UHGV virus genome: UHGV-1369766
Source of the DNA: a virus
Direction: 5' to 3' (one strand)
Length of the DNA: 38,287 nucleotides
Part shown: positions 2,970 through 7,630 of the stretch, piece after piece
Position numbering within the stretch: position 1 is the stretch's first letter
Layout: every line of letters starts with the position of its first letter
Program-made: the position numbers and the translations under genes
Notes under the pieces: generated by a model
What the model was told of the DNA's origin: nothing
Databases searched by the model: none
What the model saw: the letters and a program-made list of their open reading frames with translations, nothing else

Positions 2970-3130
2970 ATCGCATTCAGATATTTGTTTTGATTCACTG
3001 ATGGAAAAGAATTTCTTTTAAGCAATTCCTCTCTCGATGGCATTGGCTTTACGCGTTGGCGAATAATCATTTCTGCCGGAAGAATGCCGGGATTGTATGC
3101 AAGTCCTCTCATGGTAAATTCCTCAGTCAT
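2945..3130 (-). CDS. Hypothetical small protein (61 aa, ATG-start version of the 2945..3262 ORF)
   Basis: ATG at 3128-3130 lies 3 nt upstream of the stop of the preceding gene (coupled arrangement); the longer track ORF would need a TTG start. Confidence 0.3.
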
Positions 3131-3416
3131 TACTGATAGCGCCATAGCGTGAGCGGTAATTACGCTGGCGCGGGTCAATTTCAGGGAAGTGGGTATATGT
3201 GGCTTTGCGGAATGGTCGGATTGATGTCTGGTAAATTCGCTCGCGTTCTTCTTTCTCTGCAAGCCATATACAATGGCGAAATTCCTTTTCCTCTTTCGTT
3301 TCCTGCGGTAGCGACATTATCCGGTTGTAGTTTTTCCTGAATTTATCCAGCACCTCCGATACGGAATTGCCGGAACAGCGGCGCGCGTCATCCGCACCAT
3401 ACAGAGGCGCTGGCAT
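3123..3416 (-). CDS. Hypothetical protein
   Basis: 97 aa ORF; strong RBS (AGGAGAAAATC-ATG). Confidence 0.5.
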
Positions 3417-3429
3417 GATTTTCTCCTGA

Positions 3430-3897
3430 TTAAATTGCGTGAATAGCGTGACGAGGGAAGGGGAGAGTTACTGGTTCCTCGTCTGGATATATTGGCTTGT
3501 TGTGCTTGTGCCATTCAACATGACATGCTTTGCATAGCCACATCACTTCAAGAGGTTTACTGTAATCGCAGTGGTGAGCGTCTGGGTGGCATTTGCTGTT
3601 GCATTTCTGACACGTTGTTGGTCTACATAACTTACCAGATTTAATTGCTCGTTTGACTGACCATCTTGCTTGCTGTCTTTGGCGATGAGATTCCAGATAG
3701 TTCTCTCTTGCTTTGATTAATGCAACCTTGCCCTTTTCGCTTTTGTTATATTTTTTACAAGCATTATTATGTATTAGCTTTCCTATTCCTTTTTGATATT
3801 CAGTTACTCGTTTTTTAGTGCATTCCTTGCACACCTTATTTCTAGGATAAAAACCATTAGGTGGTTTATTCTCTCCACATTTTTTGCAAGTGATCAT
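3430..3897 (-). CDS. Zinc-ribbon / HNH-like endonuclease-type protein
   Basis: N-terminal CxxC...CxxC zinc ribbon, C-terminal ...DAHHCDYSKP...WLCKACHVEWH resembling an HNH motif; ATG with GGGAGAA RBS; the 5' half of the gene is visibly AT-rich relative to flanks. Confidence 0.6.
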   Translation of the reverse strand: MITCKKCGENKPPNGFYPRNKVCKECTKKRVTEYQKGIGKLIHNNACKKYNKSEKGKVALIKARENYLESHRQRQQARWSVKRAIKSGKLCRPTTCQKCNSKCHPDAHHCDYSKPLEVMWLCKACHVEWHKHNKPIYPDEEPVTLPFPRHAIHAI

Positions 3898-3912
3898 ATT
3901 TTCTCCCAATGA

Positions 3913-4374
3913 TTAAAATGGGATCTCATCGTCGAAGTTCATAGGAGGTTCGTTGTGTTGTGCTGGTGATGATTGCTGCTGTGGCTTCTGTGATTGCCTG
4001 CTGGCTGCTTGTTGTTTGCTGTCGCCAATGCCGCCAAGCATTTGCATCACGCCATTAATTCCGACATGAACCTCGGTTGTGTAACGGTCTTGTCCTGACT
4101 GGTCTTTCCACTTTCTGGTTCTCAGCATTCCCTCGAAATAAATCTGATCACCTTTTTTCACATACTGCCCCACGACCTCAGCCAGTTTCCCGGATACAGC
4201 AACACGATGCCATTCAGTCAATTCCTTTTGCTCGCCAGTATTTTTATCTCGCCATTGTTCTGACGTGGCTATTGTCAGGTTAGCGAACGCTGTTCCTGAT
4301 GGTGAGTATCGAACTTCCGGGTCTTGTCCTACCCGACCAAGGATAATCACCTTATTTACGCCTCTGCTTGCCAT
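3913..4374 (-). CDS. ssb: Single-stranded DNA-binding protein
   Basis: 153 aa; OB-fold-like N-terminal region, Gln/Pro-rich linker and acidic C-terminal tail ...NFDDEIPF typical of SSB. Confidence 0.9.
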
Positions 4375-5082
4375 TTATGCCGCCTGTTTTAGTTCGTTAA
4401 CTCTGATGTTCATTACCTGAACGCATTTAGCCTGCGCCTCCTCGTTGCCAGCCATTAATTGCCAGTCATGCTGATAACGCTCGATGAGTTTTTTCTTGTC
4501 AGTTTCTGTCGCTGCATAATCGCTGAAGTCTTTCAGGATTTGTTCGCAGTCAATCGATGGAGATTTCTGGTTGGTATTTTCTGGTGATGGTTTGTTATCT
4601 GATGCTGGTATTGCCCATCCCGGCAGCGATGGAGGGAGCCAGTAAAATCCTGTTCCATCCTTGAGTTTTGCCCTGTGCCACCCCTGCTTTTTATCGAGAG
4701 ATGTTTGTGCAAAACCTTCCTCAAGGTTATACAGATACCGACCGATTCCCCACTGAACGGCAGCACGCTTCATTGCACCGGAACGACCACCTTTGACGGC
4801 TTCTACCTGTGTGTTTTCAGCAGCATCCCATTTGGTTACCCATTCGGAATCAATCTTTATTGATATGCCGCATTCAACGCCGCCGTTGTTGGGAATATCG
4901 CGGTATTCATTGCGCCATCCTGCTTTGCCGCAAACATCGTCCAGGCGTTTCATGATTGCCCGGTTCGTGACATAAGCCAGCACCATAGCCCACACCTTGC
5001 CATCGCGTGTTTTACCGCTTTGCTGTATTCGCCATTCGATATCTTCAGGGCTGAATGGCTCATCGAATTTATTCAAATCCAT
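4375..5082 (-). CDS. Single-strand annealing recombinase (Rad52/Sak-like N-terminus, Erf-like C-terminus)
   Basis: 235 aa; N-terminal part with GIGRYLY-type motif; C-terminal ~60 aa (...YAATETDKKKLIERYQHDWQL...CVQVMNIRVNELKQAA) matches my recollection of the P22 Erf C-terminus; GAGGTGA RBS. Confidence 0.75.
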   Translation of the reverse strand: MDLNKFDEPFSPEDIEWRIQQSGKTRDGKVWAMVLAYVTNRAIMKRLDDVCGKAGWRNEYRDIPNNGGVECGISIKIDSEWVTKWDAAENTQVEAVKGGRSGAMKRAAVQWGIGRYLYNLEEGFAQTSLDKKQGWHRAKLKDGTGFYWLPPSLPGWAIPASDNKPSPENTNQKSPSIDCEQILKDFSDYAATETDKKKLIERYQHDWQLMAGNEEAQAKCVQVMNIRVNELKQAA

Positions 5083-5090
5083 AATTCACC

Positions 5091-5279
5091 TCAGAATGGT
5101 AATTCGGATGGGGAGGAAAGAAATTCGCGCTCATTCATGCGCTCTCTTTGTGCTTGCCATAAACAAAGTTGTTTCTTTGATTTATCTCCCGCTTTACGCC
5201 AGTAACGAGCCTCAGCAATGTGATATTCTCTTTTTAATCGACTTAACTCTGGAGTTTTCGCCAGCTCTACCGGAATCAT
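5091..5279 (-). CDS. Hypothetical small basic protein (possible recombination accessory factor)
   Basis: 62 aa; GGAGG RBS 5 nt before ATG; start overlaps the stop of the upstream Kil-like gene. Confidence 0.5.
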   Translation of the reverse strand: MIPVELAKTPELSRLKREYHIAEARYWRKAGDKSKKQLCLWQAQRERMNEREFLSSPSELPF

Positions 5280-5389
5280 TTAGACCTCCATTTTCTGTAG
5301 GCTTCGACGGCCTCACGAAACATCTTTTCATCGCCAATAAAAGTGGCGATAGTGAATTTAGTCTGAATAGCCATAAGTGTTTTATCCAT
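5276..5389 (-). CDS. kil: Kil-like host-killing protein (37 aa)
   Basis: MDKTLMAIQTKFTIATFIGDEKMFREAV... closely resembles my recollection of the lambda Kil N-terminus; its ATG overlaps the cIII stop (ATGGATAA). Below the ORF-track size cutoff. Confidence 0.55.
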   Translation of the reverse strand: MDKTLMAIQTKFTIATFIGDEKMFREAVEAYRKWRSK

Positions 5390-5528
5390 TTTTTGGAACT
5401 CCTGGCTGATTAAGTACGTCGATGAGTCGTTTCCATCCGTCACGTAATTTACGGGTGATTCGTTCAAGTAAAGATTCATTTAATTGGAAGGCACCCATGC
5501 GAGCGCCTCCCGCGATTGCGTAAATCAT
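5382..5528 (-). CDS. cIII: CIII-like protease inhibitor (48 aa)
   Basis: MIYAIAGG...ESLLERITRKLRDGWKRLIDVLNQPGVPKNG matches the conserved lambda CIII core as I recall it; AAGGAA RBS; not in the ORF track (<60 aa) and out of frame with the overlapping 5276..5479 track ORF. Confidence 0.7.
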   Translation of the reverse strand: MIYAIAGGARMGAFQLNESLLERITRKLRDGWKRLIDVLNQPGVPKNG

Positions 5529-5552: not shown

Positions 5553-6521
5553 TTAGTAGGTTATTTTTGTTGCGAATACTTCGCCTTTTACGATGGCTGT
5601 TATGATATTTTTAGCAACATCTTCTGATGCGCCAACCTTGATAAGGTCAGCAAGTATTTTGTTATTTACTTCTTTCCGGTGAGCTTTATCCTTTGCTCTA
5701 CGCTCTTCTTCGTCCTTGATTCTTTTTTCTTCTGCTATTCTGGCTTGCTCTTTTACTTCAGCCTCGCGCCGGATTCGTTCAGCCTCCTCCTGTGCTTTTC
5801 GGCGTTCTGCTTCAATTGCCGCCTGCTTTTCTCTTTCAGCTCGTTCTGCTGCCTCTTTTGCTTCGCGCTGTGCTCGTTGCTCGGCTTCAATGCGTTCACG
5901 CTCTGCACGTTCCGCTGCGGCCTTAGCTTCTGCTTCTCGCCTTGCTGCTGCTTCAATTTCGGCTTTTGCCTTTGCTTCGGCTTCAGCTCTGGCTTTCTCT
6001 TCAGCTTCTCTTTTTAAGCGTTCTTCATGCTCTCGCTTTTCCTGCTCAGCTTTGAGTCTTGCCTCTTCTCTTTGGCGGTCAAATTCGCGATCCATCAAAA
6101 TCGCTATTTCATGGTCAGACTCAATTTGCTTTGCGAGAGCTTCAGCTGCTGCCTTAGCTTCTTCTTCGGCTTTAATCCGCGCCTGTTCTTCCTCATAATC
6201 AGTAAGAGGCTGGCGCGCCTTGGCTTTCAGTTCATCAAGGCGATCACGCACTGTCTTGCGGTTGGCATCAATTAGCTTTGGAATTTCCTTAAGTTCAGCA
6301 ACAAGGTCTTTGCCAAGACCATCGAGATATGTTTTCGTCTGCGCAACTTTATACGCCAGAGAAGCGATCTCCTTTCTGCCCTTTGCCGTTGTGATATCAG
6401 GCACAAAGGACATAACTTCACGTTCAACCTTTTGGAGAATTTCTTCAATCTGGTCGGCAGACTGAAATACAGTCATTGCATTTGCTTTTTCAATAACAAC
6501 TAAATCTGTTACTTCACTCAT
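5553..6521 (-). CDS. Hypothetical protein with long E/R/K/A-rich predicted single alpha-helix or coiled-coil segment
   Basis: 322 aa from the ATG at 6519-6521 (GGAGGAT RBS); ~110 aa of charged repeats (AEEKARAEAEAKAKAEIEAAARRE...); position analogous to the ea10/ral/sieB accessory segment of lambda. Confidence 0.65.
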   Translation of the reverse strand: MSEVTDLVVIEKANAMTVFQSADQIEEILQKVEREVMSFVPDITTAKGRKEIASLAYKVAQTKTYLDGLGKDLVAELKEIPKLIDANRKTVRDRLDELKAKARQPLTDYEEEQARIKAEEEAKAAAEALAKQIESDHEIAILMDREFDRQREEARLKAEQEKREHEERLKREAEEKARAEAEAKAKAEIEAAARREAEAKAAAERAERERIEAEQRAQREAKEAAERAEREKQAAIEAERRKAQEEAERIRREAEVKEQARIAEEKRIKDEEERRAKDKAHRKEVNNKILADLIKVGASEDVAKNIITAIVKGEVFATKITY

Positions 6522-6533
6522 ATATCCTCCATC

Positions 6534-6561
6534 AAAAAAAACTGCCCTCACACTGGAGGGC
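6534..6561 (-). terminator. Intrinsic terminator in the PL operon (tL1-like)
   Basis: Minus-strand GCCCTC-CAGTGT-GAGGGC hairpin followed by AG and eight T; sits between the 207-aa and 322-aa genes. Confidence 0.75.
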
Positions 6562-6695
6562 AAAGAAGATTTCCAATAATCAGAACAAGTCGGCTCCTGT
6601 TTAGTTACGAGCGACATTGCTCCGTGTATTCACTCGTTGGAATGAATACACAGTGCAGTGTTTATTCCGTTGTTTATGCCAAAAATAAAGGCCGA

Positions 6696-7319
6696 CTATG
6701 CGGACTCGGAAGGAAGTCCAATCATCTTATTCAAATCTTCTACCCGTAAAGCAGGAAGTGCTGTACTTGCTTTGTCTGCTTCTTTTGGTAGCAATTCTTT
6801 GCTTTCAGGCCAAACTTCAATAAGTCGCTTAACTGTTGTGACTGAGTTCAAAGCAGCCCATACATTTGATTCGATATCCTTTTTCTTGGTTTCAAGTTTT
6901 TGTTGCAATGCGCAGATTTCATCAAACCTTTTTGTTATTTCGTGTTCTGCATCAAACATGCATTTATCTTTGGTTGGAGTAGGGAGCAATATATCTTCGC
7001 CGTTGCCGTCTTTCCCATATGAATGCCATCCAACCCTTCTGCCAGATACAGTCAGATAAATTGAAGTAGAACGAACATCGTATGAGTAAAATGAACATCC
7101 CATCTTTTCAAGTTCTTCACTTATAGCTACTAACCTGGATGATAACTGATCCACTTCCTCAGTTTTCTTTTTACCGCCAAACGCAATAACTCTGGCGTCA
7201 AGTGCAAGCTGGTTCTTTAACTTTGTTACTTCTTCAAGTTCAGTGAAAACCCCAGACTTAATTAAAGCGTTACGAGCGATTTTCTCTTTCATTCTCGTAG
7301 TTAAGCGGATTGATGACAT
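6696..7319 (-). CDS. Hypothetical protein immediately downstream of N
   Basis: 207 aa from the ATG at 7317-7319 (GAGGA RBS); 11 nt after the N stop and upstream of the tL1-like terminator; no family recognised. Confidence 0.6.
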   Translation of the reverse strand: MSSIRLTTRMKEKIARNALIKSGVFTELEEVTKLKNQLALDARVIAFGGKKKTEEVDQLSSRLVAISEELEKMGCSFYSYDVRSTSIYLTVSGRRVGWHSYGKDGNGEDILLPTPTKDKCMFDAEHEITKRFDEICALQQKLETKKKDIESNVWAALNSVTTVKRLIEVWPESKELLPKEADKASTALPALRVEDLNKMIGLPSESA

Positions 7320-7330
7320 ATTAATTCCTC

Positions 7331-7630
7331 TCAAATAAGTGGTTTGCTGCCTAATTTTATTTTCTGGCGACCAACACAAGTCACACCCATTTCACTGCGT
7401 GGCTTGCGGTAGTAAATACGGTTCTGTTTACGCTCGACTTCTTCTGCCTTCTTGCAGCGAAGGCTTCCGAGTGATGCTGCTTTGTCTGCTCTGACGCAAC
7501 CAGAGAGCTTTAGCGCAATTTTTCGCGCCAGTCGCTGCTCTTGCATTGCCTGTTCACGTTGAGCCTGTCTGCGTGCTCTGCGGCGATTTCTGGCGTTATC
7601 GTCAGCCAGATATGTAATGACTACTGTCAT
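7331..7630 (-). CDS. N: Antitermination protein N
   Basis: 99 aa; arginine-rich motif NARNRRRARRQAQ near the N-terminus; C-terminus ...YYRKPRSEMGVTCVGRQKIKLGSKPLI resembles my recollection of lambda N (...YSKPGERGITCSGRQKIKGKSIPLI); GGAGG RBS. Confidence 0.85.
   Translation of the reverse strand: MTVVITYLADDNARNRRRARRQAQREQAMQEQRLARKIALKLSGCVRADKAASLGSLRCKKAEEVERKQNRIYYRKPRSEMGVTCVGRQKIKLGSKPLI

Follow-up and report, generated by a model that had tools for sequence, protein, structure and literature searches.

The proteins annotated as 'Erf' in the phages ES18 (gp49), Sf6 (gp28), HK75, mEpX2, N7, ST64T, epsilon34 (gp36) and L are, at 89-99% identity, the same protein as the single-strand annealing protein analysed here, which is encoded in a 38,287-nucleotide stretch of viral DNA (UHGV-1369766), referred to below as the window. 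Proteins of the ES18/Sf6/HK75 type combine a Sak-type core with an Erf-type C-terminus and are encoded in the early-left operon, and in none of these respects does anything essential differ in the window. Their composite nature has been described before. The epsilon34 genome paper of 2008 noted an Erf 'domain swap' in gene 36 (PMC2629481), and the phage L genome paper of 2020 reported unrelated N-termini but 89% identity to P22 Erf in the 55 C-terminal residues (PMC8022706). The domain swap is correct but already in print; what is added here is the repeated exchange of at least three subtypes of the C-terminal module, the location of a crossover in the linker, a second junction at the 3' end of the gene and the lack of any universal phage neighbour.

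Each half of the protein has a separate close relative. P22 Erf shares the C-terminal domain of ~58 residues, the two-domain layout with its low-complexity linker, the genomic position and an Abc2 gene downstream, but its core belongs to Pfam family PF04404 and has no detectable similarity to the core in the window. The surroundings differ too, as P22 has Arf upstream and Abc1 downstream and lacks the SSB and HNH genes. The Sak protein of Lactococcus phage ul36 shares the core, a beta element and an 'LPxWAxP' motif that lies past the Pfam Rad52 region, and an SSB gene follows both genes, whereas its C-terminal ~90 residues are unrelated to the Erf-type module. A more distant parallel is found in lambda Red-beta, whose C-terminal domain (PDB 6M9K) is likewise a three-helix bundle of ~60 residues, placed on a disordered linker beside the annealing core; annealing proceeds without it, yet it is required in vivo, it binds both lambda Exo and the SSB tail, and its job is plausibly of a similar kind. 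Unlike lambda, the window has no Exo partner, and homology of the module to the Red-beta domain is not supported: the two have no sequence similarity, and the Red-beta domain is not among the top 50 Foldseek PDB matches of the module.

The gene in the window encodes a protein with two domains joined by a linker, laid out as follows.

4375-5082, minus strand: single-strand annealing protein gene, taken from the ORF list, an intact frame of 235 aa with two domains and a linker
4606-5082, minus strand: Rad52/Sak-type annealing core, aa 1-159, with the Pfam part at aa 4-136 and the beta element at aa 126-149
4552-4605, minus strand: disordered linker rich in Pro, Ser and Asn, aa 160-177, the site of the mosaic junction
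4378-4551, minus strand: Erf-type C-terminal module, a three-helix bundle, aa 178-235

The ATG at 5082 stands just behind the ribosome-binding site, GAGGTGA, which overlaps the stop codon of a 62-codon ORF upstream; at the other end the junction with the SSB gene reads 'GCA TAA ATG GCA', so that the SSB ATG follows directly upon the TAA stop. The original prediction placed the domain border at ~170 N-terminal and ~60 C-terminal residues, which comes close, although the structured module proper begins at about residue 178 and the linker takes up aa ~160-177.

The likeness of the N-terminal part to Rad52/Sak-type proteins rather than to Erf, proposed in that prediction together with a domain-wise HMM search as a check, is borne out by that search. 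Pfam Rad52_Rad22 (PF04098) matches aa 4-136 (E 4.9e-26; 91.9 bits against a cut-off of 20.3) and the match covers positions 7-153 of the 153 in the profile, whereas the ERF profile (PF04404), which scores 157 bits with P22 Erf, gives no match to the annealing protein at E <= 1. By BLASTP, aa 6-159 align to aa 11-164 of ul36 Sak with 59% identity over 155 residues (E 7e-67), and no alignment is obtained between the annealing protein and aa 1-133 of P22 Erf. Comparison of Sak and ERF core profiles by hhalign returned a probability of 0.06%, but both profiles are shallow (Neff 1.7 and 2.3), so this null result says little on the proposed Rad52-like superfamily that unites the Sak and ERF cores. 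The full-length protein was modelled with AlphaFold2 from an alignment of 50 sequences (mean pLDDT 81.9); the alpha/beta core is predicted confidently as far as residue ~120, with pLDDT mostly 80-95, and three short strands lie in residues 126-149. Yeast Mgm101 and human RAD52 account for all 17 of the model's best PDB fold matches (E 4e-4 to 3e-2, probability 0.8-1.0); the TM-scores stay modest (0.23-0.45), as the linker and the C-terminal domain form part of the query. By homology to ul36 Sak and Rad52, the core would be expected to form oligomeric rings, to bind ssDNA and to anneal complementary strands without ATP. Its substrates would be the 3' tails made by RecBCD that has been modified by Abc2, modification of RecBCD being the role of Abc2 (PMC5928155).

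A separate observation concerns aa 129-163 ('GWHRAKLKDGTGFYWLPPSLPGWAIP'; 4594-4698, minus strand), which bear a weak likeness to WW domains (Prp40, E 0.11-0.14). This stretch lies just past the Pfam Rad52 region and is kept in ul36 Sak, AlphaFold2 gives it three short strands, and its invariant residues include W148, P151, L153, P154 and W156.

The C-terminal end aligns to P22 Erf and to nothing in the ul36 protein. BLASTP against P22 Erf (from AF217253) aligns only aa 157-235, to P22 aa 134-205, with 66% identity (E 5e-32), as the original prediction had foreseen for the last ~60 residues; by tblastn the identity rises to about 75% over a 62-residue module query. Since the Pfam ERF domain of P22 Erf occupies aa 5-146, the Erf-type C-terminal domain is mostly outside the Pfam ERF model, and possession of the module does not confer membership of the ERF family. 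The last 81 residues of the annealing protein, searched alone, match no Pfam family. In the AlphaFold2 model the module consists of helices at aa 179-192, 196-209 and 214-234 (pLDDT about 85-93), and the C-terminal 65 residues modelled alone again give a confident three-helix bundle (pLDDT 88.7). Its conserved residues include F186, W207, R227 and E230. The linker before it has a pLDDT of 35-54 and shows no column conservation in the 50-sequence alignment. Structure prediction, the other check put forward at the outset, thus yields a Rad52-like core, a disordered linker and a three-helix bundle.

Relatives of the bundle beyond these proteins are elusive. Foldseek comparison of the module model with the PDB returned nothing significant (best E 0.77), the matches being MIT domains and other generic bundles, and a profile search of PDB sequences gave chance coiled-coil matches only. 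In the viral structure library BFVD no single match is significant (E 0.35-2); five of the six best (E 0.35-0.8) are annealing proteins of other families, namely a Sak3, two "essential recombination function" proteins, a Salmonella phage recombinase and a RecT. These predicted models hint that such a bundle may be a frequent appendage on phage annealing proteins.

On the profile and alignment evidence, the annealing protein belongs to the Rad52/Sak family and not to Pfam ERF, despite its usual name. It is 98.7% identical to the 'essential recombination function' or 'Erf-like' proteins of phages N7 and mEpX2, and PHROG 1097 ('Erf-like') spans its full length (E 1.7e-129), whilst curated Pfam recognises the N-terminal core only. 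PHROG 1097 also takes in ul36 Sak and the isolated P22 Erf C-terminus, and is thus itself a chimeric cluster, an effect of the clustering method; a full-length alignment to one family, which the original prediction had named as evidence against domain shuffling, is indeed found here, but only in this trivial form. The similarities of both halves, to ul36 Sak and to P22 Erf, are far above chance. We put at about 0.85 the probability that the protein is a chimera of a Rad52/Sak-type core and a P22-Erf-type C-terminal domain, its identity, domain composition and mosaic origin being taken jointly; no result speaks against the identity or the mosaic origin. That it should instead be an ordinary single-family recombinase, its chimerism a product of mistaken or chance similarity, is so improbable that it can be set aside, for although PHROG 1097 aligns over the full length that cluster is itself chimeric, BLASTP reaches only the last 79 residues with P22 Erf and only the first 159 with ul36 Sak, these two proteins fall into different Pfam families, and the Sak and ERF cores show no relationship by hhalign.

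The protein is widespread. Some 97 deposited phages encode the full-length form at 89-99% identity, mostly under the names "Erf" or "Erf-like"; among them are N7, mEpX2, HK75, IME10, Sf6, ES18, epsilon34 and ST64T. Of 5,426 complete E. coli genomes, 402 carry the annealing protein, under the PGAP name "Rad52/Rad22 family DNA repair protein", and the same architecture extends across Enterobacterales at 56-97% identity. The module was found in 122 records of a phage collection, all of them from Enterobacterales phages except one labelled Staphylococcus. Larger collections are less telling: the 62-aa module alone retrieved from 5.8 billion proteins only 15 short fragments, which are uninformative on architectures, and from 1.84 billion cluster representatives only 13 matches, as clustering at 50% identity hides most carriers and representatives are chosen for their cores.

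Exchange of the module between cores was followed by clustering the modules of 234 proteins with Sak-type and ERF-type cores, and in a set of 327 classified loci, of which 209 have a Sak core and 118 an ERF core; the IMG/VR loci used were the best 80 each from 475, 349, 287 and 111 matches. The cluster of Sf101-type modules (at least 80% identity) holds 56 ERF-core proteins and one with a Sak core, and one Sak/ERF pair is 100% identical in the module. Seven ERF and two Sak cores carry P22-type modules, one ERF and two Sak cores carry EhrS_49-type modules (at least 70% identity), and amongst the 327 classified loci 28 ERF cores and 51 Sak cores have the KCKDVTGIR-type module. Sak-type and ERF-type cores therefore have at least three module subtypes in common, and because the subtypes are interleaved between cores in this way, exchange among phages of Enterobacterales has been repeated and was not one event. 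The domain shuffling among phage recombination modules that had been suggested for this protein is supported by these shared subtypes, which are up to 100% identical on the two cores. Two subtypes with an identity of only ~37% are found side by side in phages that share hosts (Salmonella and E. coli).

The site of crossover can be read from one protein, P0036, which is nearly identical to the window protein through residue 166 and then continues with an Sf101-type module, 94% identical to that of an Sf101 ERF-core protein, the switch being at '...NKPSP|TPEQ...'. The crossover site is thus the linker, with recombination in the DNA that encodes it. No module carrier with a third type of core was found, only Sak-type and ERF-type cores. 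Possible third cores in S9-5 (annotated 'endonuclease'), Sf101, Morganella IME1369_01 and Klebsiella RCIP0034 all proved to be Pfam ERF, and the module carrier of Erwinia EhrS_49 also has a Pfam ERF core. An intact module is present in 114 of the 120 closest relatives of the window protein and in every intact one of the 120 closest relatives of P22 Erf. Five cases in which the Sak core seemed to carry another C-terminus (P0039, P0104, P0110, P0131 and P0134) were rejected as frameshift or contig-end artefacts. The module also occurs in one protein of 106 aa (P0003, on a 42-kb contig) in which the N-terminal arginine-rich motif of lambda N (PF11438) is fused directly to it, presumably through a prophage deletion that joined N to the 3' end of the recombinase gene.

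The window as a whole is a complete P22-like temperate coliphage with an integrase, a cI-type repressor, a DnaB-type helicase, a terminase, P22 portal and coat proteins and a tailspike head-binding domain, and its genome is a mosaic of HZ41, IME10, mEpX2 and HK620. The early-left operon runs on the minus strand in the order Nmad5, 354-aa coiled-coil protein, Kil, orf62, annealing protein, SSB, HNH, Abc2 and Ead/Ea22, with the following genes around the annealing protein.

6696-7379, minus strand: Nmad5 protein (nucleotide modification associated domain 5), 227 aa, full-length match to PF18757 (E 1e-71)
5553-6617, minus strand: 354-aa protein, PHROG 1376/21365 (unknown function), no Pfam family
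5276-5479, minus strand: lambda Kil homologue (PF06301, E 4e-21), ORF listed as 67 aa
5091-5279, minus strand: orf62, in the position of P22 arf, 62 aa, PHROG 1723 (E 1.6e-33)
3913-4374, minus strand: phage SSB, 153 aa, Pfam SSB (E 1.2e-36), TIGR00621 (E 7.5e-49), acidic tail ...FDDEIPF
3430-3909, minus strand: HNH-type endonuclease, 159 aa, PHROG 2340 'endonuclease' (E 5e-40)
3123-3416, minus strand: Abc2 anti-RecBCD protein, 97 aa, 91% identical to P22 Abc2 (E 2e-67)

The true start of Kil is probably internal, as the match covers only residues 32-62 of 67. The 354-aa protein has a long centre rich in Glu, Lys, Ala and Arg and is coiled-coil-like by composition; in one E. coli prophage (L089) the recombinase likewise has an Nmad5 gene upstream. 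Orf62 was considered as an Arf homologue and dismissed, having no similarity to P22 Arf.

An ES18-type Rec module consists of an annealing protein, an SSB, a nuclease and an anti-RecBCD protein (ES18/HK75 classes of PMC12315714, Table 1). As judged from gene content and order, the recombination module in the window, with annealing protein, SSB, HNH and Abc2 on the minus strand of the early-left operon, is of this type. Phage L and P0018-type versions of the annealing gene are followed by Abc1 instead of the SSB and HNH genes. Amongst the best 80 viral loci with a near-identical module, the Sak core and module occur together in 80 and SSB and Abc2 in 78, as against 17 with HNH, which suggests that the HNH gene is a mobile insertion of the homing type, optional and not fixed in the recombination module.

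In the wider set no phage-encoded neighbour is universal among module-bearing loci. For two module types, 232 of 236 loci have Abc2 within 2.5 kb, but an Abc2 homologue was found within 2.5 kb of the KCKDVTGIR-type module in none of 76 IMG/VR loci (within L251-L330), whose phages may deal with RecBCD in another way. The 48 loci of the Abc1 type lack a phage SSB, and EhrS_49 has neither SSB nor Abc2. The pairing with an SSB made in the original prediction therefore stands as a description, the SSB gene being directly downstream, but fails as an explanation of the chimera, since the same subtype is followed by Abc1 instead of SSB in 49 loci; the adjacent SSB is incidental to the chimerism. Orf62 precedes the annealing gene in 87 of 154 loci of the P22/window type, and across more than 300 loci either Arf or orf62 usually precedes module-bearing annealing genes of both core types, neither being constant. 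The gene directly downstream of the Sf101-type module encodes, in 82 of 83 loci, a 127-aa SSB-like protein. This 'hypothetical protein' (L085:2686-3069, phage Sf101 and 81 further loci) has the features of a divergent short SSB, with a match to PHROG 44 (E 2e-27), none to Pfam and a tail that reads ...DDSIPF, and phages counted as lacking an SSB may encode one of this kind. The host SSB and both types of phage SSB end in ...D(D/E/S)IPF.

What the module does can be approached from its mobility. For a three-helix bundle on a flexible tether the likeliest role would be docking, whereby the annealing core is brought to its substrate via a partner that is host-supplied or generally available. Such a partner is favoured because identical modules sit on two dissimilar cores, the neighbours differ and no phage partner is universal. 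The best candidate would be the conserved acidic C-terminal tail of SSB, of host or phage, for which there are precedents in the C-terminal bundle of Red-beta and in the Sak4 protein of HK620, a syntenic module, which requires the tail of its cognate neighbouring SSB (PMC5928155). We hold this docking role tentatively, at rather less than even odds. By residue count the module is net acidic and not obviously suited to an acidic SSB tail; the coexistence of subtypes as divergent as ~37% in the same hosts would be unexpected if one invariant host peptide were bound; the enrichment of annealing proteins in BFVD is built on individually non-significant matches; and homology to the Red-beta domain is undetectable.

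An alternative is that the module binds a phage protein encoded in the same recombination module, with which it would form a co-evolving pair, be it SSB, the 127-aa SSB-like protein, Abc1, Abc2, Arf or orf62. The downstream gene is better predicted by module subtype than by core, with an adjusted mutual information of 0.56 against 0.34, although both values are inflated, the loci having been sampled by module type and being phylogenetically non-independent. The near-constant succession of Sf101-type module and 127-aa gene points the same way, as does P0036, in which module and 127-aa gene have moved jointly onto a Sak core, and on either core the P22-type ending '...INELKQVA' is accompanied by Abc1. 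A per-column analysis of the P22/window-type cluster (85 unique sequences with a Sak core; SSB follows in 105 loci, Abc1 in 45) limits the last of these associations. Only the final two variable residues covary with the neighbour ("RINELKQVA" against "RVNELKQAA", MI/H about 0.8), whereas the remaining module reaches MI/H values of at most 0.3 and the core about 0. A gradient confined to the end of the gene indicates physical linkage and not a co-adapted surface, and co-adaptation of the module to the downstream gene product was accordingly dropped for linkage after this analysis; a second mosaic junction lies at the 3' end of the annealing gene. Nor is any candidate universal, given that Abc2 is missing from all 76 KCKDVTGIR-type loci and SSB from those with Abc1, that EhrS_49 has neither SSB nor Abc2, and that Arf and orf62 are only partial in their occurrence. 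A phage-encoded partner is, on balance, unlikely.

We regard as similarly improbable the proposal that the module acts inside the annealing protein, either controlling the assembly of rings or filaments or gating ssDNA binding through autoinhibition or release. Poteete, Sauer and Hendrix are said to have found in 1983 that an N-terminal fragment of P22 Erf forms rings and binds DNA and that the C-terminal domain is needed in vivo. The phage L paper cites work that divides P22 Erf into two domains (PMC8022706), C-terminal regions of Mgm101 modulate DNA binding and oligomer stability (PMC3655812) and C-terminally truncated Red-beta anneals but cannot recombine (PMC5052646), all of which would suit an intramolecular role. 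A regulator of this kind should, however, co-evolve with its core, and near-identical modules sit on two dissimilar ones; the long disordered linker, too, better suits a tethered docking domain than a packed regulatory domain.

The window thus encodes a common prophage recombinase that is recognisable as such, and as its chimeric make-up is in the literature this in itself matters little. The labels "Erf" and "Erf-like" on a Rad52/Sak-type core do mean that family inferences drawn from names, as in recombineering screens and recombinase censuses, are wrong. Of some value beyond this is the Erf-type module, which its repeated, clean exchange at a disordered linker marks as the natural candidate for a unit of host or partner specificity. 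We know of no partner published for the P22 Erf C-terminal domain since the domain study of 1983. It is possible, though we would not count on it, that the Erf-type bundle is a family-independent adaptor onto the SSB tail or another host replisome or repair factor. In that event the C-terminal domain of P22 Erf would gain a function, cassette exchange would be the means by which lambdoid phages re-match their recombinase to the host, and recombinases of the Rad52/Sak or ERF type would be portable between hosts by the swapping of roughly 60 residues.
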